Shown here piece after piece: positions 11,927 to 37,985 of a stretch of DNA of 64,000 bases. The notes beneath the pieces were generated by a model. It was not told the DNA's origin. It did no database searches and saw nothing but the letters and a program-made list of their open reading frames with translations. The position numbers were made by a program, and so were the translations under genes. This stretch comes from a phage, in NCBI GenBank assembly GCA_020279385.1, contig GCA_020279385.1_4762.2; one strand, given 5' to 3'. Positions within the stretch are counted from its first letter, which is position 1; every line of letters begins with the position of its first letter.

Positions 11927-11950
11927 GCCTAAATTTTTATGAAAAAGGTG

Positions 11951-26316: not shown

Positions 26317-26785
26317 AATTGATATCTATGCGGGTGGACCTTATCCATCTGGTGAATTGAGTAATTTCAATAAAAGACCATTCCGTCTATTTGGTTGCGA
26401 TATTAACAGCACAGAAGGATTTTTACAGGGGCTAAGATTTAAGAACCCTCAGAGACAAAGAGAAATCTTTTTGATGCACGGTGGCAAAGCAAAAAGAACC
26501 GGAAGAACTGAAAAGATTGAGAATCACATGTTATATTTTCAGGGTCGCCCGATTCATCGAATGAGTGAGCATTATTACAGACTGGTACATCTGGCATTTG
26601 TTACGATGGCACGGAATAACCCAGAATTTTGTAAAGCATTACTCGCTACCGGAAATAAGAAATTACGTCATAGCATAGGTGGAACTGATCCGTTAAAGAC
26701 TATATTGACTGAATCGGAATTTTGTAGTATCCTCAATGATATTCGTGAACGTTTAACAAAACGAGGTGAAAATGTCAATTCTTAA
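26306..26785 (+). CDS. Hypothetical protein, possibly NADAR/YbiA-like
   Basis: 159 aa; N-terminal IYAGGPYPSGELSNF...FLQGLRF loosely resembles the NADAR (DUF1768) N-terminal block; weak assignment. Confidence 0.3.
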   Translation: MTSEIDIYAGGPYPSGELSNFNKRPFRLFGCDINSTEGFLQGLRFKNPQRQREIFLMHGGKAKRTGRTEKIENHMLYFQGRPIHRMSEHYYRLVHLAFVTMARNNPEFCKALLATGNKKLRHSIGGTDPLKTILTESEFCSILNDIRERLTKRGENVNS

Positions 26786-28268
26786 TATCATTAACCAGCT
26801 TGCAGCGACCGACAAAACATCGCTGAAAGAAAAGATTCTGAAAGAATCCGCGAGCAATGAAACGCTGAAAGAATGCTTTTATCTGGCATATTGCAAACAG
26901 GTTACGTTTGGCGTAAAGAAATACGATAAACCATCGCGCTATTCGTCTGTATTGTCTTTATCCGGTGCATTACAGGTCTTTAAAAATAAACTTGCCACGC
27001 GTCAAGTAACTGGTAATGCAGCATTACAGCTAGTTACCGATACTCTGACTTGCTTGTCAGAGGATGATGCTAAAGTTGCAATGATGGTCCTGAATCGTGA
27101 TCTGGAATGCGGTTGTTCCGCCACCACTGCAAACAAGGTATGGAAGAAACTGATCCCCCAGCAGCCGTGTCACCTTGCATCGTCATATTCTGATAAGGCT
27201 ATTGCTAATATCAAGTATCCGGCGTATGCACAACTTAAAAGCGATGGTGCTCGTGGTATGGCTGATATTGACGGGGAAACATTAGCAATCTATACCCGTT
27301 CAGGTAATACCTATCAGGGACTTGATGATTTGTTTGCGGTTTTAGAGCGTCTACGAGGCCGTGGAATTGTTCTAGATGGCGAATTGGTATATATGCCTAC
27401 CCTTTCGCAAACACCAGCGCAGAACTTCGTTGAGAGCGTTTATGATGGTACTCTGTCATGGATATTTGAAGAAGAGGAAATGCCATTAACGCCAGTAGCG
27501 GAAGCAGTAAAAGAATCCGTTGTTGCAGACCGTCAGACCGGAAATGGTATCCTCAACAAATCACTTAAAGGAACTATTCCAAAAGAAGAAGCCCAATGTA
27601 TTGTTTATACTGTCTGGGATGTTATCGACCGTGATGTGTATTACGGAAACGAGAAAGCAACGAAGCAATATAAAGATCGATTCGAAGAACTAAAACAGAT
27701 TGTTGAAGAACTTAACGATCCTCGTGTTCAGATAATCGAAAATACTGTAGTTAACAATATCGATGAAGCTCGCGAAGTATATCATCGCTATGTAAACATG
27801 GGCTTAGAAGGTATTATCCTTAAAAATTTACATGGTGTATTTGAAGATCGTCGCAGTAAAGATCAGGTTAAATTTAAAGAAGTGATTGACTTCGACGCTG
27901 AAATTGTTGATGTATATCCGCATAGTAAAGATCCTAATAAGGTAGGCGGTTTTACTGTCCGTAGTGCGTGCGGACGAATGATGACTAACACCGGATCGGG
28001 ATTAACCGACACCACAACCGAAAAAGGTGATGATGGTATTGAACGTGTAATTCCGTTCGATCGTCGAAATGAACTCGACCGAGAAATGTTATGGGCTGAC
28101 CGTCATAACCTGATTGGAAAAGTCATTGAGATGACATGCAACGGGTACATTCGCAGCAAATCACGTAAAGAAGATGAACCGGAGTTCTCTTTATTTCTCC
28201 CGATCATCAAACGTATTCGCTACGACAAGACCACTGCAAATACAGTAAAAGAGGTATTCGATGTGTGA
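26772..28268 (+). CDS. 30: ATP-dependent DNA ligase
   Basis: Ligase motif I KYPAYAQLKSDGARG and LDGELVY resemble T4 gp30 as recalled (KFPAFAQLKADGARC, IDGELVY); start set at ATG after GAGGTGA. Confidence 0.9.
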   Translation: MSILNIINQLAATDKTSLKEKILKESASNETLKECFYLAYCKQVTFGVKKYDKPSRYSSVLSLSGALQVFKNKLATRQVTGNAALQLVTDTLTCLSEDDAKVAMMVLNRDLECGCSATTANKVWKKLIPQQPCHLASSYSDKAIANIKYPAYAQLKSDGARGMADIDGETLAIYTRSGNTYQGLDDLFAVLERLRGRGIVLDGELVYMPTLSQTPAQNFVESVYDGTLSWIFEEEEMPLTPVAEAVKESVVADRQTGNGILNKSLKGTIPKEEAQCIVYTVWDVIDRDVYYGNEKATKQYKDRFEELKQIVEELNDPRVQIIENTVVNNIDEAREVYHRYVNMGLEGIILKNLHGVFEDRRSKDQVKFKEVIDFDAEIVDVYPHSKDPNKVGGFTVRSACGRMMTNTGSGLTDTTTEKGDDGIERVIPFDRRNELDREMLWADRHNLIGKVIEMTCNGYIRSKSRKEDEPEFSLFLPIIKRIRYDKTTANTVKEVFDV

Positions 28269-28737
28269 TAATGAAGGGGCGAAAGCCCCTAAACCTAAAA
28301 AATTGTCAAAGAAAGAGCAACGCCAGATCCTGAAAATGAAATACGGTGGACGTTGTGCCTATTGTGGCGAGGAACTAGGGGATCGCTGGCACGCAGACCA
28401 CATCAAACCAGTATTGCGACGCTCAAAAGTAGTCTATGATGAAAATGGACGAATTGCCCGTAATGATGATGGATCGTGGAAGTATAAGGTTGTAGGAATG
28501 CATAAACCGGAACATGATATACTTGATAACATGAATCCGTCGTGTGTGCAATGCAATCTTTATAAAAGCTGTATGGGCTTAGAATACTGGCGTAAGTGTA
28601 TACGCGAGAACTTCCAGAAATACATTCAGCGCAATATGGGGTTGCGAGCGGCTAAACGCTTTGGCTTACTGTCAATCCACGACCAGCCAGTAGAATTTTA
28701 TTTCGAAAAGTATGAGCGCGAGCATCAAGAAAAATAA
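28261..28737 (+). CDS. HNH endonuclease (small, free-standing)
   Basis: CAYCGEELGDRWHADHIKP...NMNPSCVQCNLYK: HNH His-Me finger with Cys pairs. Confidence 0.75.
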   Translation: MCDNEGAKAPKPKKLSKKEQRQILKMKYGGRCAYCGEELGDRWHADHIKPVLRRSKVVYDENGRIARNDDGSWKYKVVGMHKPEHDILDNMNPSCVQCNLYKSCMGLEYWRKCIRENFQKYIQRNMGLRAAKRFGLLSIHDQPVEFYFEKYEREHQEK

Positions 28738-28750
28738 TTCAAAAAAGTTG

Positions 28751-28779
28751 TTGACAGGGGATCACCGATCCCCTATACT
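28751..28779 (+). promoter_or_regulatory. PeSL-type early promoter
   Basis: TTGACA - GGGGATCACCGATCCCC palindrome as 17-nt spacer - TATACT; then ...CGAAACGA...AGGAGAATCAA leader. Confidence 0.55.
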
Positions 28780-28813
28780 ACACACATACCGAAACGAACT
28801 AGGAGAATCAATT

Positions 28814-28993
28814 ATGAACTTCAACGAAATCATCGCTAAAATCCGCTACAACGAAGAAACCATTGAACTGATGCAAAACAATATCACCAATGGTTATATG
28901 ATTGCAGCGTCACAAGAAATCATTGATTTGACGGTAGCAGAAAATGCTCAGTTGAAACATCAACTTTCAACGGCTGGCGTGATTGTTATGTAA
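28814..28993 (+). CDS. Hypothetical small protein (59 aa)
   Basis: ATG after AGGAGAATCAATT; track ORF 28712.. starts inside the previous gene. Confidence 0.45.
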   Translation: MNFNEIIAKIRYNEETIELMQNNITNGYMIAASQEIIDLTVAENAQLKHQLSTAGVIVM

Positions 28994-29010
28994 TAAAGAG
29001 AGGTGACTAA

Positions 29011-29313
29011 ATGGCAAAAGTTAAGGTAGGCGAGGTCTTCAAAATGGAAGACCACACCGTGGAAGAGATGAAAGGCGCAGTATTGAAAGTAACTAATTCA
29101 ATGTGTCGTAGTGTGCTTTACATCAACTTTATAGACGGTGATGTGTGGTGGGCTAGCGATAGCGATAAATGGGATATCAAGTTCTACAAAGGTCATACTC
29201 ACTGGTTAGGAACAGAGGATGTTGTAGAAGTTCTGGCGGTTGATGTTATGCCAGGCGAGATCGAAAGTCTTAGCGGAACCGCAAAAGAAGCATTGACACG
29301 CCATTTTGTGTGA
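29011..29313 (+). CDS. HxHW-motif small protein, paralogue 1
   Basis: ...KFYKGHTHWLGTEDVVEVLAVDV... Confidence 0.55.
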   Translation: MAKVKVGEVFKMEDHTVEEMKGAVLKVTNSMCRSVLYINFIDGDVWWASDSDKWDIKFYKGHTHWLGTEDVVEVLAVDVMPGEIESLSGTAKEALTRHFV

Positions 29314-29370
29314 TATAATATAACAATCATTGGGAGGGGTAATACTCTCCCACAAATTGAGGATAATATT

Positions 29371-29562
29371 ATGTGTGGTCTTAAAATGGTTGCTGAATAT
29401 AAGCGAACTGGTAATATTATTATGTATCGACGCAATGCCAACGAAGACTGGAAACCTTCCAACCGCATTAAATCCATCCAGACGTTTATGAATAACATCA
29501 AAGAAAACCTTTTCGTTAAGCGTGTTGGCGCTGAACATTGGGAAGTTTACGAAGCTGTATAA
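29371..29562 (+). CDS. Hypothetical small protein (63 aa)
   Basis: ORF with AGGATAATATT ATG start context. Confidence 0.35.
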   Translation: MCGLKMVAEYKRTGNIIMYRRNANEDWKPSNRIKSIQTFMNNIKENLFVKRVGAEHWEVYEAV

Positions 29563-29578
29563 TTTTGAGGAAAATATT

Positions 29579-29881
29579 ATGGAACGTACCAATTTGTTTG
29601 TAACCGAACCTTTCGTTGAAGGAAACAAGAACCTTGCTAATACGGTTATTCTTTACGAAGATTGGATCTTTTACATCGATGAGAATTTAGATGTATATTG
29701 TCGTCCAACCCCAAATGACTCATTCTATATCGAAGAAAACGATACCCATAATCATTGGTATGACGGAAACGACGAAACCGATCTTGCTATTGTTCTCGAA
29801 TCCGGCGTAGAATCGGAACATGCCGATGAAGTAGCAGACAAATTTATGAAATACGCATATAAAGATAAAGTTGAAGAATAA
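29579..29881 (+). CDS. HxHW-motif small protein, paralogue 2
   Basis: ...IFYIDENLDVY...NDTHNHWYDGNDETDLAIVLE... Confidence 0.5.
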   Translation: MERTNLFVTEPFVEGNKNLANTVILYEDWIFYIDENLDVYCRPTPNDSFYIEENDTHNHWYDGNDETDLAIVLESGVESEHADEVADKFMKYAYKDKVEE

Positions 29882-29889
29882 AAAAGTTG

Positions 29890-29918
29890 TTGACAGGGGA
29901 TCGGTGATCCCCTATAAT
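29890..29918 (+). promoter_or_regulatory. PeSL-type early promoter
   Basis: TTGACA - GGGGATCGGTGATCCCC - TATAAT. Confidence 0.55.
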
Positions 29919-29951
29919 GCACACATACCAACGAGATATAGGAGAATCAAA

Positions 29952-30119
29952 ATGTTCCAGACTAAAGCAGAATGCGAAGCATACATTGTAGCAAACCACG
30001 GTGAAGACTACCTGAAATTCGATATCGTAGTAGCACAGAAGATCACCGGAATGGTTGCAAAATATCTAGGTGTTAAAGAAGGTTACTATCCAAGCAACGC
30101 ACCAGAAATTAACAAATAA
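29952..30119 (+). CDS. Hypothetical small protein (55 aa), duplicated cassette copy 1
   Basis: MFQTKAECEAYIVANHGEDYLKFDIVVAQKITGMVAKYLGVKEGYYPSNAPEINK; near-identical to 33212..33379. Confidence 0.55.
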   Translation: MFQTKAECEAYIVANHGEDYLKFDIVVAQKITGMVAKYLGVKEGYYPSNAPEINK

Positions 30120-30122
30120 TAG

Positions 30123-30151
30123 TTGACAATGATTAAAGGGAGTAGTAAGAT
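30123..30151 (+). promoter_or_regulatory. PeSL-type early promoter
   Basis: TTGACA - 17 nt - TAAGAT within GGGAGTAGTAAGATACTCCC stem-loop. Confidence 0.45.
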
Positions 30152-30183
30152 ACTCCCATCAAGACAACAAACGGAGAATCAAA

Positions 30184-30363
30184 ATGAAAGCTATCGAAGT
30201 TCAGAAGTACATGGAACTCATCATTGAAGGTAAAGCACATACAGTATTGACTACCAACGTAGGATATGATAAAAATGTGCATATGCTGGTAGACAATATC
30301 GGCTGGATGAAGTTTAATCCTAATGAGAATGTACAAGCTCAAGAAATGACCATCCCTTTCTAA
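30184..30363 (+). CDS. Hypothetical small protein (59 aa)
   Basis: MKAIEVQKYMELIIEGKAHTVL...; ATG after GGAGAATCAAA. Confidence 0.4.
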   Translation: MKAIEVQKYMELIIEGKAHTVLTTNVGYDKNVHMLVDNIGWMKFNPNENVQAQEMTIPF

Positions 30364-30375
30364 GAGGAATATATT

Positions 30376-30654
30376 ATGATGCGAATTACTGCAACGCTGG
30401 ATAAGACACACAAAGAAAGATTTTTCGGTATGATCTTAAAAACGCCGATTTTCGATAATTACCTTTATGTTGACTATGAAGGCCATATTAGCTATAAATG
30501 TAAAAATGATATTCGTGATTCCTTTGGTGATAAATCACAAGCTGATATTCACGATCATTGGTGGACCTTCGACGAACCTTTACGGATTATCGCAGTTGAT
30601 GTAAAAACAATAAAAGAAGCTGATAAGGTAGTTAACGATTATGAGCAAATTTAA
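30376..30654 (+). CDS. HxHW-motif small protein, paralogue 3
   Basis: ...YLYVDYEGHISY...ADIHDHWWTFDEPLRIIAVDV... Confidence 0.55.
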   Translation: MMRITATLDKTHKERFFGMILKTPIFDNYLYVDYEGHISYKCKNDIRDSFGDKSQADIHDHWWTFDEPLRIIAVDVKTIKEADKVVNDYEQI

Positions 30655-30850
30655 AGACTATAAAGCATATCAACAGATCCTGCGAGTATACGCACCAGAG
30701 TTCGCCGAAAAGATGATGGAAGATGCATCAAAATGCCCGTCCTTTTCTGGAAACAAAAACCATTATTCGACTGGTATTGTGTCATGGAAAGAAACCGCAT
30801 ATACTCAACAATGGATAGATGTGTTTTCAAAAACTCTTGAGTGGTGTTAA
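30641..30850 (+). CDS. Hypothetical small protein (69 aa), MSKFKDY paralogue A
   Basis: MSKFKDYKAYQQILRVYAPEFAEKMMEDASKC... Confidence 0.5.
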   Translation: MSKFKDYKAYQQILRVYAPEFAEKMMEDASKCPSFSGNKNHYSTGIVSWKETAYTQQWIDVFSKTLEWC

Positions 30851-30852
30851 TT

Positions 30853-31068
30853 ATGAGCAAATTTAAAGATTATCGAGCATATAAAGCGATCTGCGATATA
30901 TTCGATGAAAAGACCGCTCATGAAATGATGGAAGATGCAGAACAATATGAATCATTCGTCAATTCCAAAGATTGCACAGTAAACGGGATTGTGTGCTGGA
31001 AAGATACAAAGTATGAAGAAAAATGGATTACCGTGTATTACGGAGAACTAGAATATGAAATTAACTAA
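30853..31068 (+). CDS. Hypothetical small protein (71 aa), MSKFKDY paralogue B
   Basis: MSKFKDYRAYKAICDIFDEKTAHEMMEDAEQY...; tandem paralogue of previous ORF. Confidence 0.5.
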   Translation: MSKFKDYRAYKAICDIFDEKTAHEMMEDAEQYESFVNSKDCTVNGIVCWKDTKYEEKWITVYYGELEYEIN

Positions 31069-31375
31069 AAAGATTTTCCCAGAATTGCGTAACTGTCTGT
31101 TATTGGTTACTGAATATAAGCCGTATACGATCTACTTGTATGTTGATGAAAATCTGAAAATCCGTTACTATGATTATACGTCTCCAGTGATGAAATCATT
31201 TGCTCACTCGATAGCAAATAACTGTATGAATCACAATCATTGGGTATCAGAAACGGATGACGATGCGTCAGAAGTTGTAGTGGTTGCATGGAATCTATCA
31301 CCAGCGGAAGCAGATCAAGCACGCATTAAGCATTATGCGAAAAACAATTGGTTTGACCTTATAAGTGAGGACTAA
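31055..31375 (+). CDS. HxHW-motif small protein, paralogue 4
   Basis: ...YLYVDENLKIRYY...NHNHWVSETDDDASEVVVVAWN... Confidence 0.5.
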   Translation: MKLTKKIFPELRNCLLLVTEYKPYTIYLYVDENLKIRYYDYTSPVMKSFAHSIANNCMNHNHWVSETDDDASEVVVVAWNLSPAEADQARIKHYAKNNWFDLISED

Positions 31376-31379
31376 TATT

Positions 31380-31658
31380 ATGTTCAAAGTAGGTGATAAG
31401 TTTATTCTTAGTCGTGATATTCTCCCTAATCTGAAAGGTTGTATCATCAATCCTAGTAAAAATTCATGGTTTTATCTGTTTATCGACGACAAACTGAATG
31501 TACGCGCAGAATATAAAGAAGGTCTTCGTACTGGTCTAGGTTTCTTTCACGATCATGATCATAGCCATTGGTTAAACGGTGGATTCGAAGCAACGGTGCT
31601 AGCGGTTGACGTGACCTACACAAACATCATAGAAAAATATCAAAAAATTATTTTATAA
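31380..31658 (+). CDS. HxHW-motif small protein, paralogue 5
   Basis: ...FYLFIDDKLNVRAEY...HDHSHWLNGGFEATVLAVDV...; ATG after GTGAGGACTAATATT. Confidence 0.55.
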   Translation: MFKVGDKFILSRDILPNLKGCIINPSKNSWFYLFIDDKLNVRAEYKEGLRTGLGFFHDHDHSHWLNGGFEATVLAVDVTYTNIIEKYQKIIL

Positions 31659-31664
31659 AAAGTG

Positions 31665-31693
31665 TTGACACCGGATCGGGGATATAGCATAAT
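31665..31693 (+). promoter_or_regulatory. PeSL-type early promoter
   Basis: TTGACA - 17 nt - CATAAT inside GGGGATATAGCATAATATCCCC stem-loop. Confidence 0.5.
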
Positions 31694-31739
31694 ATCCCCA
31701 TCGAAACGAGATACACTTTCTAACTAGGAGAATCAAATT

Positions 31740-32027
31740 ATGGCATACATTACTATCACTCTGAAAGTTAACAAATTTGCTCACGCTGCACACGAAACAG
31801 ACAATGCAATCCGTAACAACAAGTTCGCACGTCTGGTACGCGATGCAGTAGCTAAAGAGTTCAACTTCAAATTTGCAGACGGTAAAGTTATCACTAAATG
31901 GACTCATGACGGAGAAACTAAAGTAGAACTTGCTGATAACTTCGCAAATCAGGAATATGCACACCGTCGCATTAATGAAATTATCAGCGATGAACTCTAC
32001 TACGGTGTACAGGAAGGACTGTTTTAA
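31740..32027 (+). CDS. Hypothetical protein (95 aa)
   Basis: ATG after AGGAGAATCAAATT. Confidence 0.5.
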   Translation: MAYITITLKVNKFAHAAHETDNAIRNNKFARLVRDAVAKEFNFKFADGKVITKWTHDGETKVELADNFANQEYAHRRINEIISDELYYGVQEGLF

Positions 32028-32030
32028 TAT

Positions 32031-32056
32031 ACGGGGCGTTAAGCCCCACCCCTTTT
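32031..32056 (+). terminator. Stem-loop / terminator
   Basis: GGGGCGTTAAGCCCC hairpin followed by ACCCCTTTTCATCC. Confidence 0.45.
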
Positions 32057-32080
32057 CATCCAACTATTGAGGATAATACT

Positions 32081-32389
32081 ATGAAAGATAATATCTTTGA
32101 ATTTACCCGCGAAAATCTCCCAATGTTCCGAAAGTCTCTGCTTAAACTAGAGAACAGCAATTACAACGTATATTTTTACATCACCGAAGACCTAGAGATC
32201 CTTTACGCAGATTATCCAGGTCCGATCCGTACCTTCGAAGAAGCATCGCAGTATAAAAATGTTCACGGTCATGAGCACTGGTTACGAGAAAACCCAGGTC
32301 GCAAGAAAGCACGCGTTAAAGTGTTGGCGATTGACATAACACCAGCATACGCCGACCGGATTGCACTGAATGATTATTTGTCTAAATGA
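32081..32389 (+). CDS. HxHW-motif small protein, paralogue 6
   Basis: ...YFYITEDLEILYAD...HGHEHWLRENPGRKKARVKVLAIDI... Confidence 0.55.
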   Translation: MKDNIFEFTRENLPMFRKSLLKLENSNYNVYFYITEDLEILYADYPGPIRTFEEASQYKNVHGHEHWLRENPGRKKARVKVLAIDITPAYADRIALNDYLSK

Positions 32390-32395
32390 TTTCAT

Positions 32396-32426
32396 TAGCC
32401 GACCTTAGTGTCGGCTTTTTTATTTC
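32396..32426 (+). terminator. Rho-independent terminator
   Basis: AGCCGACCTTAGTGTCGGCT hairpin followed by TTTTTTATTTCC. Confidence 0.65.
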
Positions 32427-32444
32427 CAAAAATTAAAAAAGTTG

Positions 32445-32473
32445 TTGACACCTGATCACGCCTATAGCACAAT
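32445..32473 (+). promoter_or_regulatory. PeSL-like early promoter (weaker -10)
   Basis: AAAAAAGTTGTTGACA ... CACAAT, then ACACACATCGAAACGAGATACCACTTAGGAGAATCAAACA ATG leader. Confidence 0.4.
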
Positions 32474-32513
32474 ACACACATCGAAACGAGATACCACTTA
32501 GGAGAATCAAACA

Positions 32514-32783
32514 ATGGCACTGACTAAAACCACTACCAACTTTGCAAAACGTCACGGCTTCGACCTTGAAATCAATAGCTTTAACGATTACACCCTTCTG
32601 TGTGTATATGAAATCGAAAATGATTGCGAGTGGATGTTCAGCTATCGCGTAAACGAAGACGGATCTTTCACTTGGAACGGAAATATCTATCTTGCACAGG
32701 AAGTAAAAGAAGAACTTCCGGCGACTATCAAAGATGAGAAACATTTACGTCAAGTTTTAAAATTTATTTCTGAAAATATCTAA
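32514..32783 (+). CDS. Hypothetical protein (89 aa)
   Basis: ATG after conserved leader/RBS. Confidence 0.5.
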   Translation: MALTKTTTNFAKRHGFDLEINSFNDYTLLCVYEIENDCEWMFSYRVNEDGSFTWNGNIYLAQEVKEELPATIKDEKHLRQVLKFISENI

Positions 32784-32791
32784 AAAAGTTG

Positions 32792-32820
32792 TTGACACCA
32801 AAGTAAGAACATAGCATAAT
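32792..32820 (+). promoter_or_regulatory. PeSL-like early promoter
   Basis: AAAAAAGTTGTTGACA - 17 nt - CATAAT, then ACACACATACCGAAACGAACTGGAGAATCAAAA ATG. Confidence 0.5.
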
Positions 32821-32853
32821 ACACACATACCGAAACGAACTGGAGAATCAAAA

Positions 32854-33135
32854 ATGAAATTCATCAAAGCAACCGAAATCCTGAAAAACAAAGAAGCATA
32901 CATCGGAAACATCGTTGGTATGAACATTCGCGGCGCTGGTAGCCAGTGGACCAAACTGGTTGATGTTAAAGCTAAAGGCGATAAAATTGAGTTCACTGTA
33001 AAAATGCTTACTCATAACGCACATATGGGTATCAAGACAAAAACGATGGCCGCAGATAAAAGCATCAACTATCAAGATCTGGGCGATTGGTTGAACTGGT
33101 GCAAAATGCACAACATCGAAACTAATCACGAATAA
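32854..33135 (+). CDS. Hypothetical protein (93 aa)
   Basis: ATG after conserved leader/RBS. Confidence 0.5.
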   Translation: MKFIKATEILKNKEAYIGNIVGMNIRGAGSQWTKLVDVKAKGDKIEFTVKMLTHNAHMGIKTKTMAADKSINYQDLGDWLNWCKMHNIETNHE

Positions 33136-33149
33136 TTTTAAAAAAGTTG

Positions 33150-33178
33150 TTGACGGGGATCGGGAGATCCCCTATAAT
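33150..33178 (+). promoter_or_regulatory. PeSL-type early promoter
   Basis: TTGACG - GGGATCGGGAGATCCC palindrome spacer - TATAAT. Confidence 0.55.
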
Positions 33179-33211
33179 ACACACATAACGAAACGAAATA
33201 GGAGAATCAAA

Positions 33212-33379
33212 ATGTTCGAGACTAAAGCAGCATGTGAAGCATATATCATTGAAACCCACGGCGAAGATTATCTGAAATTTGACATTGTAGTAGCACAGAA
33301 GATTGTAGGGATGGTTGCGAAATACCTCGGAGTTAAAGAAGGTTACTATCCTAGCAACGCACCAGAAATTAACAAATAA
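33212..33379 (+). CDS. Hypothetical small protein (55 aa), duplicated cassette copy 2
   Basis: MFETKAACEAYIIETHGEDYLKFDIVVAQKIVGMVAKYLGVKEGYYPSNAPEINK; ~90% identical to the 29952..30119 product. Confidence 0.55.
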   Translation: MFETKAACEAYIIETHGEDYLKFDIVVAQKIVGMVAKYLGVKEGYYPSNAPEINK

Positions 33380-33393
33380 TTTTATAAAAAGTG

Positions 33394-33422
33394 TTGACAG
33401 GGGAGGATAACTCCCCTACAAT
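33394..33422 (+). promoter_or_regulatory. PeSL-type early promoter
   Basis: TTGACA - GGGGAGGATAACTCCCC spacer - TACAAT. Confidence 0.5.
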
Positions 33423-33462
33423 ACAACCATCAAGACGAGATACCACTTAGGAGAATCAAACA

Positions 33463-33714
33463 ATGGCTAACATCGAAACCGCAAAGAAAATCGCTAAAGA
33501 CCTGAACGTTAAAGGCTTCCGTAAACTGAAATTACAGCGTGTACGCTACACCATCGGCAAACAGTGCTCTTTCATGAGCGAAGAAGTTGCTAACAGCCTC
33601 ATTGATAACCTGATTGCGGCTGGCTGGGAAGTTGCGGATCTGAAAACTTGCCGCGAACTGGCTAACAAAGGTCTTTTAGATTCTGTTACTATCAAACCAA
33701 TGGGGGCAGCGTGA
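33463..33714 (+). CDS. Hypothetical protein (83 aa), first gene of coupled operon
   Basis: MANIETAKKIAKDL...; ATG after TAGGAGAATCAAACA. Confidence 0.5.
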   Translation: MANIETAKKIAKDLNVKGFRKLKLQRVRYTIGKQCSFMSEEVANSLIDNLIAAGWEVADLKTCRELANKGLLDSVTIKPMGAA

Positions 33715-33956
33715 AAAGAAAATTAATTAAACGCAATAAGGAATTTCTTAATAACTGCATTAAGGCCGCTAATGGTTGGCCTTTGTTCCTCTTCCTTTAT
33801 GATTGGTATTCTAAACAATCGGTAGAGGAAACACGACACTATAAGAAGATCAGAAAAGAATCATATACAAAACAAGGCCGCATTAACGGACTTTACTTAA
33901 TGTGGCACGGCAAAGAACCTTCTAAAATCTGTGTTGGATTAAAGGGGCGTATATGA
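33711..33956 (+). CDS. Hypothetical protein (81 aa)
   Basis: GTG start overlapping upstream stop (GTGA); basic N-terminus, hydrophobic WPLFLFLYDWY segment. Confidence 0.4.
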   Translation: MKRKLIKRNKEFLNNCIKAANGWPLFLFLYDWYSKQSVEETRHYKKIRKESYTKQGRINGLYLMWHGKEPSKICVGLKGRI

Positions 33957-34669
33957 AACAAAAATTAATATTCTGCAACTTTGACGGATCGGGGATAATG
34001 GGGCTAGAATGGGCTAAAGCAGGTCATAAGGTGATCTGCTTTAATGCTGACGATGGCGACCACGGCACATACAAAAAGTATAATACCCGATTTGAACATC
34101 CAAACATTACCTATGTAAACACATGGATTGATTTGAACTGGCTGGAAAGAGCAATGGACCTTGAATGGGGGAAACCGGATATTATCTTTGCATTCCCACC
34201 GTGCACCAATTTAGCTGTTAGTGGCGCTGCACACTTTGAACGAAAGAAACGAGAACAAGGACCATTGATTCAAGTTCATGATGTAAGGGCAGCTAAAATA
34301 ACCGCTTATTTGGGTGAATGGCTAGGAGTTCCCTACATGATAGAGAATCCTGTAAGCGTTATCTCTAGCATGTGGCGTAAGCCTGATTATATGTTCCATC
34401 CGTGGGAATATGGTGGTTATTTGCCGGAAGATGATAAGCATCCTACGTTTCCTGAGTATATTGCCGCCCGTGATATGTACCCGAAAAAGACTTGCTTATG
34501 GACCGGACAAGGCTTTATGATGCCAGAAAAGAAACCTTTGCAGATTAATAAAGGGTACAGTAAACAGCATTCTAAGCTAGGCGGGAAAGGAACGAAAACA
34601 AAGACTATAAGGTCACTTACCCCGCGAGGATTCGCAAAGGCAGTATTTGAAGCCAATAAGGATCTATGA
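33953..34669 (+). CDS. Cytosine-C5 methyltransferase-like protein (divergent, no obvious target-recognition domain)
   Basis: FCNFDGSGIMG (motif I-like), FAFPPCTNLAVSGA (motif IV-like Pro-Cys), YMIENPVSV (motif VI ENV-like); 238 aa; ATGA overlap with neighbours. Confidence 0.5.
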   Translation: MKQKLIFCNFDGSGIMGLEWAKAGHKVICFNADDGDHGTYKKYNTRFEHPNITYVNTWIDLNWLERAMDLEWGKPDIIFAFPPCTNLAVSGAAHFERKKREQGPLIQVHDVRAAKITAYLGEWLGVPYMIENPVSVISSMWRKPDYMFHPWEYGGYLPEDDKHPTFPEYIAARDMYPKKTCLWTGQGFMMPEKKPLQINKGYSKQHSKLGGKGTKTKTIRSLTPRGFAKAVFEANKDL

Positions 34670-34998
34670 TGAGATTGTTTAAGTATTCGCTAACGTCAAA
34701 TTACGATAAACAAGGTCATTGCATCCGTTGCCCTGATTGTCATAGCCATAACATCGAAAGCAAGATCACCGATCATATTGATGGACTTTGGTCGCCAGCA
34801 AGTGAAATAGAATACTATTGCTCTGATTGTGGAATTGTAGTAGCATATTGGGCATACGGATCATATGATCCATACTTCCAGATGGGAGAGCGTTCAATCC
34901 CTGCGCTCATCTGGAGAATTAAGAACAATATCCGCCATTCATGGGATGAGTTCTTAAAAGATATTGATTTACGTGATGATCCATTCAGGAGACTATAA
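34666..34998 (+). CDS. Zinc-ribbon protein (110 aa)
   Basis: CIRCPDC ... CSDCG (CxxC-x29-CxxC); coupled to flanking genes. Confidence 0.5.
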   Translation: MMRLFKYSLTSNYDKQGHCIRCPDCHSHNIESKITDHIDGLWSPASEIEYYCSDCGIVVAYWAYGSYDPYFQMGERSIPALIWRIKNNIRHSWDEFLKDIDLRDDPFRRL

Positions 34999-34999
34999 C

Positions 35000-35518
35000 A
35001 TGAACCGTTTAACGCCTAAACGCCGCTACTATACCAATACTAAAAACTTTGTTATCTCTGTTTACGAAGCATGGTTAGAAGATGGCTATATCAACATGAA
35101 CCCAGATTATCAGCGTCCTTTAGTATGGGACACCGAAAACAAACGTATGTTTATTGAAAACCTGATTAATGATTTTCCGGTTGGTGCTATCGCAATGGCT
35201 AAGATTGATGATGGCTCTCGCTATGAGATCGAAATCGTGGACGGTAAACAGCGTTTAAACGCAATATTCTCCTTTATGAAGGATGAGTTTAGCATTGCCG
35301 GTAATGATGATTCTATGTTGTATTACAGTGATTTTACGCCAGCAGAAAAGCGACGTTTCCGAAATCTCGGACTACCCGCGATCATGATGGAAGAGAGCAC
35401 ACGAGAAGACCGATTAGAGTATTTCTACAAAACAAACTTTTTCGGTGTGCCTCAATCGGAAGAACATCGCCAGCATGTGATTGCCCTATTGCAAGATGAG
35501 CAATTAAAAAATAACTAA
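35000..35518 (+). CDS. DUF262 (ParB/GmrS N-terminal-like) domain protein
   Basis: DYQRPLVWDTENKRMFIENLINDFPVGAI...IVDGKQRLNAI matches the DUF262 signature (DxQR...W...DGQQR); ATG after CAGGAGA. Confidence 0.6.
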   Translation: MNRLTPKRRYYTNTKNFVISVYEAWLEDGYINMNPDYQRPLVWDTENKRMFIENLINDFPVGAIAMAKIDDGSRYEIEIVDGKQRLNAIFSFMKDEFSIAGNDDSMLYYSDFTPAEKRRFRNLGLPAIMMEESTREDRLEYFYKTNFFGVPQSEEHRQHVIALLQDEQLKNN

Positions 35519-35525
35519 AAAGTTG

Positions 35526-35554
35526 TTGACAGGGGATCGGTGATCCCCTATAAT
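35526..35554 (+). promoter_or_regulatory. PeSL-type early promoter
   Basis: TTGACA - GGGGATCGGTGATCCCC - TATAAT; same spacer as 29890..29918. Confidence 0.55.
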
Positions 35555-35590
35555 GCACACATACCGAAACGAACTACTAAGGAGTATCAA

Positions 35591-35803
35591 ATGGCTAACA
35601 TCGAAATCATCATTACCGACGTAACTTATGACCGCATTAACGAAATCGGTACTGCATTACTGGAAGATGGAACAACTCGTACCATCAACTACGCAGAATA
35701 CGTTGAAATGCGTGGTTGTATTAAACGAGTAGGAAAATATACCCTGATTGAAAAAGACTATTCAGGATACACCTTAGAGCAATTGCTTGATGGTGCATTA
35801 TAA
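35591..35803 (+). CDS. Hypothetical protein (70 aa)
   Basis: MANIEIIITDV...; first five codons shared with 33463 ORF, so the repeat runs into the coding start. Confidence 0.5.
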   Translation: MANIEIIITDVTYDRINEIGTALLEDGTTRTINYAEYVEMRGCIKRVGKYTLIEKDYSGYTLEQLLDGAL

Positions 35804-35808
35804 TAAAA

Positions 35809-35833
35809 AGGGGGCGTTAAGCCCCGTTTTCAT
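35809..35833 (+). terminator. Stem-loop / terminator
   Basis: GGGGCGTTAAGCCCC hairpin followed by GTTTTCAT. Confidence 0.5.
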
Positions 35834-35871
35834 AAATATAGGTTTATAGGTTATCAACTAGAGGATATAAA

Positions 35872-37923
35872 ATGTTTAACTTAGAAATCGACGATCTAAT
35901 GATTGAATCTTTCGAGAAATGGCTGTTGACGGAAGAGGAAGAAAACTTTGGCAGTATTGCTCCTGTACAGTGCTTAAAGCCTAAGCAGAATCCTAAACAG
36001 CTTTTTGCAGTACAGACACGCGATAAAGATGTGATTGTCCGTCTTTGCAACTTCACCAACAAAACACCTAAAATCATTCGTATGGGCGACAAGACCGCAC
36101 ATGTTGTACTGTGCGAAATGAACAAAAGCGGTCGTATTGTACAGCTTAAAAATGGTCTAGGCGATAACCCGATTGCAGTCATGGCAAGTGCTTTTGATGT
36201 GGTTATGGAAACAGCCCGTAAAGCGCAATTAGACGCTGTTATGTTCCGTTTTAACGTATCCCGCATGAAAGGTAAGACCGAACTGATTAAGCGCGTTATA
36301 GAGCGTTTGGTGCGTCGTACACCGAAGTTTGAAGTATTCCAGCAGGAAGTAATGACCAGCAAAAAGATCGCTTTAGTTGTTGTCAAGCGTCGCGGGATAG
36401 CGATTGATAAGATTAAAGGGATTAAACTTGATGAATCCTTGTTCACTAAAGTAGAAAGTGATTTAGGTGATCGCTGGGTATCTAAGGCTACTGGTGAATC
36501 TCTGACTAAAGATGAAGCGTATGCGGCTAGTCTTGTGTCAGAAGAAGAACGAAACGCGGAAGCAGAACAACGCGTAGCGGCTAAATCTCGTTTGACTAAA
36601 GAAGAAATGCTGAAAACTCAAGCGACCTATAACAGCGACTATGTGAATCATCCAGAAAAAATTAATCTTAAACCGGAAGAAGATATCACCGAAGCCGAAC
36701 CTAAGAAACAGTTTAATACTCTGATTGACCGTCAAGCCTTAGAACGTTCAACCGCCCGTTCTCTGAATGACTGGACAAGTGATATTATCACTCGCTATGG
36801 TTTCATGCGTACTATTTTTGAAAGCGAAGCCGATGCAAAATACGCAGTAAGCGAACTGGTAAAAGTTCAGGATCAATATGATCCGTTGTCTGCGGAAGTT
36901 ATCGCAGCATCAATCAAACGCTTAAAAGAAATCATGAGCGAGGAAGTATTCGAAAACAAGATCACCGCCCTGGCAATGGATCGAGTAGACCAGTCTATGC
37001 CAGCAGATGTAAAAGCTGAAATGCTGCGTAGTCATATCACCCAGATTAAAACCGATGCCCTACGTAATGTTGCTTCCGGTATGTTTGAAGCAATTGCTAG
37101 CAACATGGGTGAAATGATGGCAGATATTGATCTTGATCTGCCAGGTGCGGAAGGTTTTGTGTTGAGCGAATATGCGGATGCAGCATACATCAATATGAAC
37201 AACTTCCTAACCGACCGTAAGCTGGAAGAATTTGATGGTATCGCAGATCCAGAAGAATTGGTCAAGATGTGCGATGCACTGGATAATGCCTTCTCTAACT
37301 ATGGTGTTAAACTTGATCCGGGTACTATTCTGTATCGTGGTATGGACTTCCGGTCTCAAATGTGGGAAACTGCACGTAAGCAAAAAGCGTTTTACTTTAA
37401 AAACTATGTGAGCACTTCCCTTGCACCTAACATTTTTGGCGGCTGGAATGCAAACGTGGCTAGTGCCGTTGCTGGTGTTGATTCTATGGCTGGCTCTCGC
37501 GGTGAAGGTGGCGCTAATGTTGCTTTCTCCATTGCTGGCGCGGAAAACATCCCTGTATTGCCAGTAGGTAACAAAGCATTTGCTTACAAAGAATGCGAGA
37601 TTTTACTTCCTCGCGGTGTTGTGTTATCCTTTGATACGGTAACTCGTGCTACGGCATCGACGGATTCACAAGAAACTTATTACATTGAGGCACATATTAT
37701 GAACAAAAATGAACTGGCAGCATTACAAGAATCTGGCGAGATGATCGCGGACGGTGATGCATTCATCCGTGAAGGTGTTGTTAAACCTGCTTCTGACCTG
37801 TCTTTCTCCAGCTTTATTACCGAAGCTAAAACCGAACGTAAGAAAGCAGATAAGGCAACTCTACGTCAGCTTATCGCTGATCTGGTATCTGTAGACGCAA
37901 TGCCAGATAAATTTAAAATGTAA
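35872..37923 (+). CDS. alt: Alt-like ADP-ribosyltransferase
   Basis: 683 aa (T4 Alt ~682 aa as recalled); ART R-S-E triad LYRG, YVSTSL, KECEILLPRG; position next to gene 30. Confidence 0.85.
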   Translation: MFNLEIDDLMIESFEKWLLTEEEENFGSIAPVQCLKPKQNPKQLFAVQTRDKDVIVRLCNFTNKTPKIIRMGDKTAHVVLCEMNKSGRIVQLKNGLGDNPIAVMASAFDVVMETARKAQLDAVMFRFNVSRMKGKTELIKRVIERLVRRTPKFEVFQQEVMTSKKIALVVVKRRGIAIDKIKGIKLDESLFTKVESDLGDRWVSKATGESLTKDEAYAASLVSEEERNAEAEQRVAAKSRLTKEEMLKTQATYNSDYVNHPEKINLKPEEDITEAEPKKQFNTLIDRQALERSTARSLNDWTSDIITRYGFMRTIFESEADAKYAVSELVKVQDQYDPLSAEVIAASIKRLKEIMSEEVFENKITALAMDRVDQSMPADVKAEMLRSHITQIKTDALRNVASGMFEAIASNMGEMMADIDLDLPGAEGFVLSEYADAAYINMNNFLTDRKLEEFDGIADPEELVKMCDALDNAFSNYGVKLDPGTILYRGMDFRSQMWETARKQKAFYFKNYVSTSLAPNIFGGWNANVASAVAGVDSMAGSRGEGGANVAFSIAGAENIPVLPVGNKAFAYKECEILLPRGVVLSFDTVTRATASTDSQETYYIEAHIMNKNELAALQESGEMIADGDAFIREGVVKPASDLSFSSFITEAKTERKKADKATLRQLIADLVSVDAMPDKFKM

Positions 37924-37940: not shown

Positions 37941-37985
37941 TTGACTCAAACGGGGACTAGTTTTATACTAGCCCCGTTTTCTGTT
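37941..37985 (+). promoter_or_regulatory. Combined terminator / PeSL-like promoter
   Basis: TTGACT - 17 nt - TATACT with -10 inside CGGGGACTAGTTTTATACTAGCCCCG hairpin followed by TTTTCTG. Confidence 0.45.

Follow-up and report, generated by a model that had tools for sequence, protein, structure and literature searches.

Promoter early stem-loop elements at the heads of accessory gene cassettes in hyperplastic region HPR3 of an RB49-like Krischvirus

The locus and its repeat family

The phage contig GCA_020279385.1_4762.2 (NCBI GenBank assembly GCA_020279385.1), analysed here as one strand of 64,000 nucleotides (the window), carries a run of 22 small open reading frames (ORFs) between the stop codon of an HNH endonuclease gene and alt (28814-35803). 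All of them lie on the + strand, encode proteins of 55-238 amino acids (aa), and are interspersed with a repeat that we assign to the promoter early stem-loop elements (PeSLs). An earlier reading made from the sequence alone had claimed more than 20 small ORFs between DNA ligase gene 30 and alt. The count and the alt side of that description hold, whereas on the other side the HNH gene separates gene 30 from the first repeat. The phage is a Krischvirus of the RB49/phi1 group, i.e. an RB49-like, T4-like coliphage. Indeed, all 59 phage records that match the region are Krischvirus, at ~95-97% identity, and no record in the phage collection exceeds ~96-97% over the region. The gene order is that of phi1 from ORF209 to ORF185, ORF by ORF, and the same order is found in RB49. 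The locus is HPR3 of RB49/phi1, the hyperplastic region that served Arbiol et al. 2010 (PMC2839356) to define and test PeSLs. The G+C content (0.37-0.42 in the region versus 0.37-0.43 in the flanks) gives no sign of a recent foreign origin.

Nine full copies of the repeat, of about 75-95 nt each, lie within 28738-35590 (7.1 kb), all on the + strand and each preceding a small ORF. Their parts follow one another in a fixed order: an A-tract, (G)TTGAC(A/G), a 17-nt spacer, a -10 hexamer, a CA-rich leader (ACACACATACCGAAACGA-like), the block GGAG(A/T)ATCAA, 0-3 nt and the ATG. The TTGAC sequences start at 28751, 29890, 30123, 31665, 32445, 32792, 33150, 33394 and 35526. The spacer measures 17 nt in every copy, the -10 hexamer reads TATAAT, TATACT, TACAAT, TAAGAT, CATAAT or CACAAT, and the promoter consensus is matched at 12/12 positions in two copies, 11/12 in five and 10/12 in two. 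The GGAG(A/T)ATCAA block is present 0-3 nt 5' of the ATG in all nine, typically as GGAGAATCAA; the window contains nine exact matches to this 10-mer, each of which closes a PeSL on its 3' side. Eight copies begin directly after the stop codon of the upstream gene, which is followed by an A-tract of the AAAAAGTTG type; in copy 5 (32425-32513) a terminator at 32397-32416 stands between stop codon and A-tract. Twelve intergenic gaps in the region are longer than 50 nt. Nine of these contain a full copy, and the gaps 32028-32080 and 35804-35871 hold only the hairpin GGGGCGTTAAGCCCC.

The copies form a single family, the alignment of which had been proposed as a check with the sequence-only reading: it has 26 invariant columns and a mean column identity of 66%, and when the copies are searched with an nhmmer profile built from all nine, the E-values are 3e-11 to 6e-20. 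Pairs of copies have longest exact runs of 7-47 nt in common, compared with a mean of 6.6 nt and a maximum of 13 for random 90-nt pairs from the region. The repeat even enters the coding sequence, as had been pointed out, since ATGGCTAACATCGA (encoding MANIE) is common to the ORFs at 33463 and 35591, the proteins of which are otherwise unrelated. That reading had also listed eight copies, and TTGAC with a 17-nt spacer is found at all eight; it missed the full copy at 32445 (-10 CACAAT), and its estimate of at least a dozen was too high, as there are nine full copies, or ten with the divergent copy at 29293. The window has 25 occurrences of the motif TTGACN-N17-TANNNT, 24 of them on the + strand, where shuffled sequences have 3.4 +/- 1.7, and a promoter scan of 28000-36500 returned seven sites that match at least 11/12 positions, all seven being these repeats. 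A search of 28000-36500 against Rfam (E <= 1) gave no match, and the element has no Rfam family.

In the window as a whole the profile gave fifteen hits at E < 1e-3, all on the + strand. Six weaker members of the family are found elsewhere, at 11938, 13164, 18022, 20322, 20594 and 20874 (+ strand; E = 1e-12 to 5e-4), and the other hyperplastic regions of this genome probably work likewise. In a promoter at 37941, just after alt, the -10 lies within a strong hairpin (-18.6 kcal/mol); this promoter does not match the profile significantly (E = 9).

The correspondence to the published elements is closer than a resemblance, and the assignment to PeSLs made in the sequence-only reading is right: the locus is the same and syntenic, and three copies have the same or nearly the same sequence as named PeSLs of RB49. 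More specifically, 29882-29951 is identical to PeSL206/205 and 28738-28813 to PeSL210/209, and 33136-33211 differs from PeSL192/191 by ~2 nt within the element. The parts described for PeSLs are an AT-rich tract, a sigma-70 consensus, a G(n)/C(n) stem-loop that may occupy any of five positions, a Shine-Dalgarno sequence and a start codon (PMC2839356). The window copies likewise combine an AT tract that contains or abuts the upstream stop codon, TTGACA-N17-TATAAT, a G(n)-loop-C(n) stem-loop (in all but 32792) and a Shine-Dalgarno sequence with start codon. Moreover, they lie in a hyperplastic region upstream of ORFans, are orthologous to published PeSLs, and are associated with ORF insertions and deletions that have their crossovers inside the element. 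The downstream ORFs belong to no Pfam family and only to PHROGs of unknown function. The GenBank record of GEC-3S annotates promoters and terminators at the homologous sites. The PeSL206/205 clone was a strong promoter of ~13,000 Miller units (PMC2839356), and the predicted early-promoter consensus of RB49 is reported to agree with the 5'-end mapping of early transcripts (PMC1524935).

Genus, locus (ligase/HNH to alt), gene order, element anatomy and the association with ORFan indels are shared with HPR3 of RB49/phi1, and the only difference is the cassette complement. The PeSLs of T4/PST and KVP40/nt-1 (Comeau, Arbiol & Krisch 2014, PMC4122927) are also composite promoter/terminator motifs upstream of variable hyperplastic-region ORFs. 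However, they follow other consensuses, namely TTTACW..TAYWAT with AGNA-loop-TCNT stems or TTGYVH..TAWWAT with A3-4G3-loop-C3T3-4 stems, unlike the near-perfect sigma-70 consensus and GGGG/CCCC stems of RB49 type in the window. Because feature, locus and genes have all been described, the region is already known and represents no new kind of element.

Hairpins and the ribosome-binding block

Seven of the nine elements have a stem of 6-8 bp, and an eighth is accompanied by a separate terminator with a T-tail; the folding energies of the hairpins range from about -10 to -14 kcal/mol. The hairpin lies inside the 17-nt spacer in five copies (28751, 29890, 33150, 33394 and 35526), where the stem is G+C-rich and 6-7 bp long and the spacer by itself folds at ~-10 to -11 kcal/mol. 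In two others (30123 and 31665) a stem of 7-8 bp covers the -10, and at 32445, where the spacer has no hairpin, the T-tailed terminator at 32397-32416 lies upstream. The earlier description of the spacer as a GC-rich palindrome or stem-loop therefore applies, when the spacers are folded, to five of nine copies and not to the two with a hairpin over the -10, the one with a separate upstream terminator and the one with none. The divergent site at 29293 is followed by a GGGAG...CTCCC hairpin (~29331-29350; z = -2.5) and belongs to the subclass of PeSLs in which the stem-loop comes after the -10.

The stem letters vary between copies and the pairing is kept (GGGGATC/GATCCCC, GGGGAG/CTCCCC, CGGGGA/TCCCCG). 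In addition, two base pairs have changed in a compensatory way between the hairpin at 31678-31699, GGGGATAT..ATATCCCC, and the orthologous hairpin of Skers and other relatives, GGGTGTAT..ATACACCC. Because of this covariation, both between copies and between orthologs, we consider the structure to be under selection. As the hairpins of the spacer and the -10 lie upstream of the likely start of their own transcript (assumed to be 6-8 nt after the -10), they would form as RNA only in transcripts that come from upstream.

The spacer hairpins GGGGATCACCGATCCCC (28757-28773) and GGGGATCGGTGATCCCC (29896-29912 and 35532-35548) are exact reverse complements of each other, with the loops ACC and GGT, respectively. 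The same flip occurs between orthologs, as PeSL206/205 has ACC in phi1 and GGT in RB49 and the window; gene conversion between copies or inversion of the loop could be the cause. Four of the five spacer hairpins have two GATC (Dam) sites per stem. The hairpin GGGGCGTTAAGCCCC is found in identical form at 32033-32047 and 35811-35825, with no promoter attached to either. The homologous sites are annotated as terminators in GEC-3S and G2494, and judging from its flanking T-runs the hairpin at 35811-35825 could terminate in both directions.

To judge from its sequence, the ribosome-binding block is probably a cleavage site for RegB/S1 as well. The strong cleavage consensus of T4 RegB/S1 is GG*AGRAYARAA (review PMC3014915), and GGAGAATCAAA agrees with GGAGRAYARAA at 10/11 positions in the copies in which AAA follows (six of nine). 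The GGAG block is unpaired in most predicted folds and lies in an A-rich context in an early translation-initiation region. RB49 encodes an active but divergent RegB (PMC3014915), and 11 of the 13 genes without a PeSL have GAGG-type or other ribosome-binding sites and no GGAG. On account of this match, the active RegB of RB49 and the lack of GGAG in most genes without a PeSL, the cassette may carry its own early shut-off signal. As with the T4 sites, the GGAGAATCAAA block belongs to the ribosome-binding site of whichever gene comes first after an early promoter. The likeness is one of sequence, however, and the preference of the divergent RB49 RegB beyond GGAG/U may not be that of T4. Arbiol et al. 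2010 (PMC2839356) make no mention of RegB. Another repeat, TTGAGGAWAATAYTATG (29356-29373, 29564-29581 and 32066-32083), forms the ribosome-binding region of genes without a PeSL.

Cassette gain and loss and gene content

The interval from ligase to alt was compared with that of eleven relatives (phi1, GEC-3S, Skers, PHB13, Brandy, UPWr_E1, ECD7, ELT4, G2494, MIZ4 and RB49). BLAST alignments were joined by overlap-tolerant dynamic-programming chaining, because repeated PeSLs make neighbouring alignments overlap. Eleven distinct structural differences emerged, seven of which have their junctions in PeSLs (Table 1); the link between these elements and the gain and loss of cassettes, for which a comparison of relatives had been suggested with the sequence-only reading, was thus reproduced. 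In five of the seven the flanking alignments overlap by 24-95 nt. Moreover, where one genome has a cassette between two PeSLs and another has a single PeSL, three-way alignments show the single element to be a chimera, with its left part from one flanking PeSL and its right part from the other, as is seen for the ORF210, ORF186, ORF195/196 and ORF191 events and for the MIZ4 deletion. The crossover zone lies between the -10 and the leader in the ORF210, ORF186 and ORF191 events and lies in the A-tract/-35 in the MIZ4 deletion, and this variation argues for general homologous recombination and not for a fixed site. Given that PeSLs make up ~10% of the region, 7/11 junctions corresponds to P = 4e-5 under uniform placement.

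Duplication has occurred as well. The unit of PeSL and ORF205 (29879-30120) is found again at 33139-33380, over 242 nt with 84% identity, and the resulting paralogs (ORFs 29952 and 33212) match at E = 5.5e-34. Copy 1 is the junction for the ORF210 and ORF211+210 cassettes in eight relatives; an extra ORF211 follows the HNH gene in RB49, PHB13 and G2494. By inverse PCR, mini-circles joined within PeSLs were detected around ORF192 and ORF210 in HPR3 of RB49/phi1 (PMC2839356), and both of these cassettes are absent from the window. The window phage also lacks the ORF211, ORF195/196 and ORF186 cassettes and has ORF191 and ORF189.1. Its set is the smallest among the 12 genomes and equals that of Skers minus ORF186 or that of ECD7 minus ORF210; the exact combination is found in none of the eleven relatives.

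That the gene content might be new, as had been suggested with reserve, does not hold. Skers aligns to 26766-35573 in a single alignment with 96.2% identity, and each of the 20 ORFs scanned has a match in an existing PHROG family that spans all or nearly all of the ORF. Only three genes bear a functional label, namely the DNA methyltransferase (phrog_757), the GmrSD_N/DUF262 protein and the flanking HNH endonuclease. In Pfam, no family was found for 17 of the 20 ORFs scanned and only GmrSD_N (ORF187) scored above the cut-off; the PROCT and zinc-ribbon matches were weak and below threshold.

Six paralogs of 92-106 aa, more than a quarter of the genes of the region, have in common an invariant H-x-H-W motif, after which comes a (V/I)LA(V/I)D(V/I)-like strand; this HxHW family is spread over five PHROGs of unknown function. 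The ORFs at 30641-30850 and 30853-31068, homologs of phi1 ORF202 and ORF201, are tandem paralogs that both start with MSKFKDY (phmmer E = 1.6e-18). The genes of the block at 33463-35518 are joined by overlapping stop and start codons and include ORF187, the domain of which is a ParB-like nuclease; the block may constitute a modification or anti-defence module.

Table 1. Features of the region between DNA ligase gene 30 and alt, followed by the structural differences with junctions in PeSLs (ORFs are named after their phi1/RB49 homologs)
Feature	Position	Strand	Remarks
DNA ligase gene 30	26766-28268		
HNH endonuclease gene	28261-28737		phrog_2118; overlaps 3' end of gene 30 by 8 nt; abuts first PeSL
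PeSL copy 1	28738-28813	+	A-tract; -35 TTGACA 28751-56; spacer hairpin GGGGATCACCGATCCCC 28757-73; -10 TATACT 28774-79; leader; GGAGAATCAA 28802-11
ORF209 homolog, 59 aa	28814-28993	+	phrog_14803, unknown function
ORF208 homolog, 100 aa	29011-29313	+	HxHW family
Divergent promoter-like site	29293-29350	+	TTGACA-N17-TAATAT, 10/12; overlaps ORF208 stop
ORF207 homolog, 63 aa	29371-29562	+	
ORF206 homolog, 100 aa	29579-29881	+	HxHW family
PeSL copy 2	29882-29951	+	-35 29890-95; spacer hairpin GGGGATCGGTGATCCCC 29896-912; -10 TATAAT 29913-18; 12/12 promoter
ORF205 homolog, 55 aa	29952-30119	+	
PeSL copy 3	30120-30183	+	-35 30123-28; -10 TAAGAT 30146-51; hairpin 30138-30157 over -10 (z = -4.5); nhmmer E = 3e-11
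ORF204 homolog, 59 aa	30184-30363	+	
ORF203 homolog, 92 aa	30376-30654	+	HxHW family
ORF202 homolog, 69 aa	30641-30850	+	tandem paralog of ORF201 homolog
ORF201 homolog, 71 aa	30853-31068	+	
ORF200 homolog, 106 aa	31055-31375	+	HxHW family
ORF199 homolog, 92 aa	31380-31658	+	HxHW family
PeSL copy 4	31659-31739	+	-35 31665-70; -10 CATAAT 31688-93; hairpin GGGGATAT..ATATCCCC 31678-31699 over -10 (z = -2.7)
ORF198 homolog, 95 aa	31740-32027	+	
Hairpin GGGGCGTTAAGCCCC, then ACCCCTTTTCA	32033-32047	+	terminator-like, without promoter; z = -2.4
ORF197 homolog, 102 aa	32081-32389	+	HxHW family
Intrinsic-terminator-like hairpin	32397-32416	+	AGCCGAC..GTCGGCT and T-run; upstream of copy 5 A-tract
PeSL copy 5	32425-32513	+	-35 32445-50; -10 CACAAT 32468-73; spacer without hairpin; nhmmer E = 6e-16
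ORF194 homolog, 89 aa	32514-32783	+	
PeSL copy 6	32784-32853	+	-35 32792-97; -10 CATAAT 32815-20; without hairpin (z = +0.8)
ORF193 homolog, 93 aa	32854-33135	+	
PeSL copy 7	33136-33211	+	-35 TTGACG 33150-55; spacer hairpin GGGATCGGGAGATCCCC 33156-72; -10 33173-78
ORF191 homolog, 55 aa	33212-33379	+	paralog of ORF 29952
PeSL copy 8	33380-33462	+	-35 33394-99; spacer hairpin GGGGAGGATAACTCCCC 33400-16 (z = -3.7); -10 TACAAT 33417-22
Five-gene block	33463-35518	+	without internal PeSL
ORF190	33463-33714	+	first gene of five-gene block
ORF189.1	33711-33956	+	five-gene block
DNA methyltransferase	33953-34669	+	phrog_757; five-gene block
Zinc-ribbon ORF188	34666-34998	+	five-gene block
ORF187, GmrSD_N/DUF262	35000-35518	+	Pfam 4e-20; five-gene block
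PeSL copy 9	35519-35590	+	-35 35526-31; spacer hairpin GGGGATCGGTGATCCCC 35532-48; -10 TATAAT 35549-54; GGAGTATCAA 35581-90; 12/12 promoter
ORF185 homolog, 70 aa	35591-35803	+	
Hairpin GGGGCGTTAAGCCCC	35811-35825	.	T-runs on both strands; terminator-like end of region before alt
alt	35872-37923		
ORF211+210, +742 to +762 nt	28718-28738		junction in PeSL copy 1
ORF210, +397 nt	28738-28798		junction in PeSL copy 1
ORF195/196, +502 nt	32398-32492		junction in PeSL copy 5; in RB49, Brandy, UPWr_E1, MIZ4
ORF192, +535 to +542 nt	33131-33136		junction in PeSL copy 7; in RB49, G2494
ORF191 loss, -250 nt (junction in PeSL copy 7)	between 33211 and 33372		Brandy, UPWr_E1
MIZ4 deletion, -2380 nt	between PeSL 33150 (copy 7) and PeSL 35526 (copy 9)		removes ORF191 and the whole five-gene methyltransferase block
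ORF186, +247 nt	35550-35573		junction in PeSL copy 9; in 8/11 relatives

Mode of action and alternative explanations

Taken as HPR3 of an RB49/phi1-type phage, the region very probably consists of PeSL-headed early units, the cassettes of which are exchanged by general recombination. The 22 small accessory genes would form about ten short early transcription units, each headed by a PeSL. The A-rich tract of the element resembles an UP-element and also contains the stop codon of the upstream gene, and the near-consensus sigma-70 promoter would serve the host RNA polymerase, still unmodified, from the first moments of infection. The hairpin would terminate or attenuate transcripts that arrive from upstream and in this way insulate the unit. 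As the PeSLs recur every 0.2-2 kb in direct orientation, they would provide homology for the general recombination of the phage, by which cassettes of a PeSL and its ORF would be deleted, inserted and duplicated. The early timing and the termination at each copy in the window phage would be those of the orthologous published elements.

Several points weigh against this explanation. Promoter and terminator activity in the window phage are carried over from orthologous copies, and for the stem-loop such activity has been published for PeSL211/210 only. The hairpin is missing altogether from copy 32792, as it is from the spacer of 32445, and the spacer hairpins have no T-run and are not flagged by a generic terminator scan. 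Under a stricter null model, in which events fall on gene boundaries, the enrichment in PeSLs is only borderline (P = 0.049, 11 relatives). Four of the eleven indels lie at gene boundaries without a PeSL; in three of these the flanking alignments overlap by only 6-17 nt, and the fourth is a replaced segment. Finally, the nine GGAG blocks belong to one homologous repeat and are not independent evidence for a role of RegB.

The points on indels bear on a first alternative, in which the repeats would be strong early promoters and nothing more, with a similarity maintained by selection for function and no special role in recombination. Indels would then cluster because only those at gene boundaries are viable, and any short repeat at a start site would suffice. 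The borderline enrichment and the four events outside PeSLs are what such a situation would produce, as is the loss of ORF207 in UPWr_E1, a deletion between the 18-nt ribosome-binding-site repeats TTGAGGAWAATAYTATG at 29356 and 29564. Nevertheless, we regard it as very unlikely, considering that the conservation reaches beyond -35 and -10 into the leader and the first codons, that exact runs of up to 47 nt are shared, that chimeric junctions come with 24-95 nt of overlapping homology, and that a whole unit of PeSL and ORF was duplicated. In addition, the published inverse-PCR circles at this same locus are joined inside PeSLs (PMC2839356). The hairpins might not be terminators and might act on the promoter at the DNA level, as a supercoiling-sensitive cruciform or through Dam control at the two GATC sites, or might stabilise the 3' ends of upstream mRNAs. 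The absence of a T-run, the paired GATC sites of four of the five spacer hairpins and a place between -35 and -10 that is unusual for a terminator would all fit. Yet when the PeSL211/210 stem-loop was inserted behind a strong promoter, the drop in lacZ expression was similar to that caused by rrnB T1 (PMC2839356), and the hairpin may lie in the spacer, over the -10, upstream or downstream, which fits a role in the upstream RNA better than one in promoter geometry. We consider this alternative unlikely.

The remaining explanations assign the exchange itself to the hairpin. If the cassettes moved site-specifically, in the manner of integrons, the GGGG...CCCC hairpin would be recognised by a phage protein devoted to this task, either a recombinase or a structure-specific nuclease, a possibility that was raised by Arbiol et al. 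(PMC2839356). The preservation of the hairpin by compensatory changes would be in line with it, and so would the loop that occurs as ACC and as GGT between copies and orthologs and the HNH endonuclease gene that adjoins the region. However, the crossover zones differ (A-tract/-35 in MIZ4, -10 to leader for ORF210, ORF186 and ORF191), the PeSL at 32445 is also a junction although it has no spacer hairpin, and no Pfam integrase or recombinase match was found among the 20 region ORFs scanned. Short homologies suffice for T4-type recombination. We consider a site-specific mechanism highly improbable. It is also doubtful, if somewhat less so, that the hairpin acts as DNA that starts recombination, by cruciform extrusion or fork stalling, cleavage by a structure-specific nuclease, or template switching. 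The PeSLs would then be active hot spots, with GGAGAATCAA recruiting RegB/S1 to give a self-limiting early unit, and the two loop orientations would be the footprint of recombination started at the hairpin.

The proposed exchange of PeSL-headed cassettes by general recombination invites a comparison with other mobile accessory genes. Lambdoid morons and integron cassettes are likewise small accessory genes, with their own promoter/terminator or in arrays, that are gained and lost as units. Integrons require an integrase and attC/attI sites. In the window, however, a Pfam scan of 20 ORFs of the region gave no integrase, and the elements have variable crossover positions in place of a fixed site. 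The lambdoid morons, described by Hendrix and co-workers in 2000, reportedly have no conserved linker repeats at their flanks and are thought to insert by illegitimate recombination.

The cassettes headed by PeSLs are among the few concrete mechanisms proposed for the way in which large lytic phages shuffle accessory genes without damage to the core genome. The present contribution is one of confirmation: across 12 genomes, and not only in the original pair, most gains and losses of HPR3 cassettes have chimeric PeSL junctions. The preservation of the hairpins by compensatory changes is a second confirming point, and the match of the ribosome-binding block to the RegB consensus, which may provide the cassettes with a signal for early shut-off, is one small addition to the work of Arbiol et al. 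2010.

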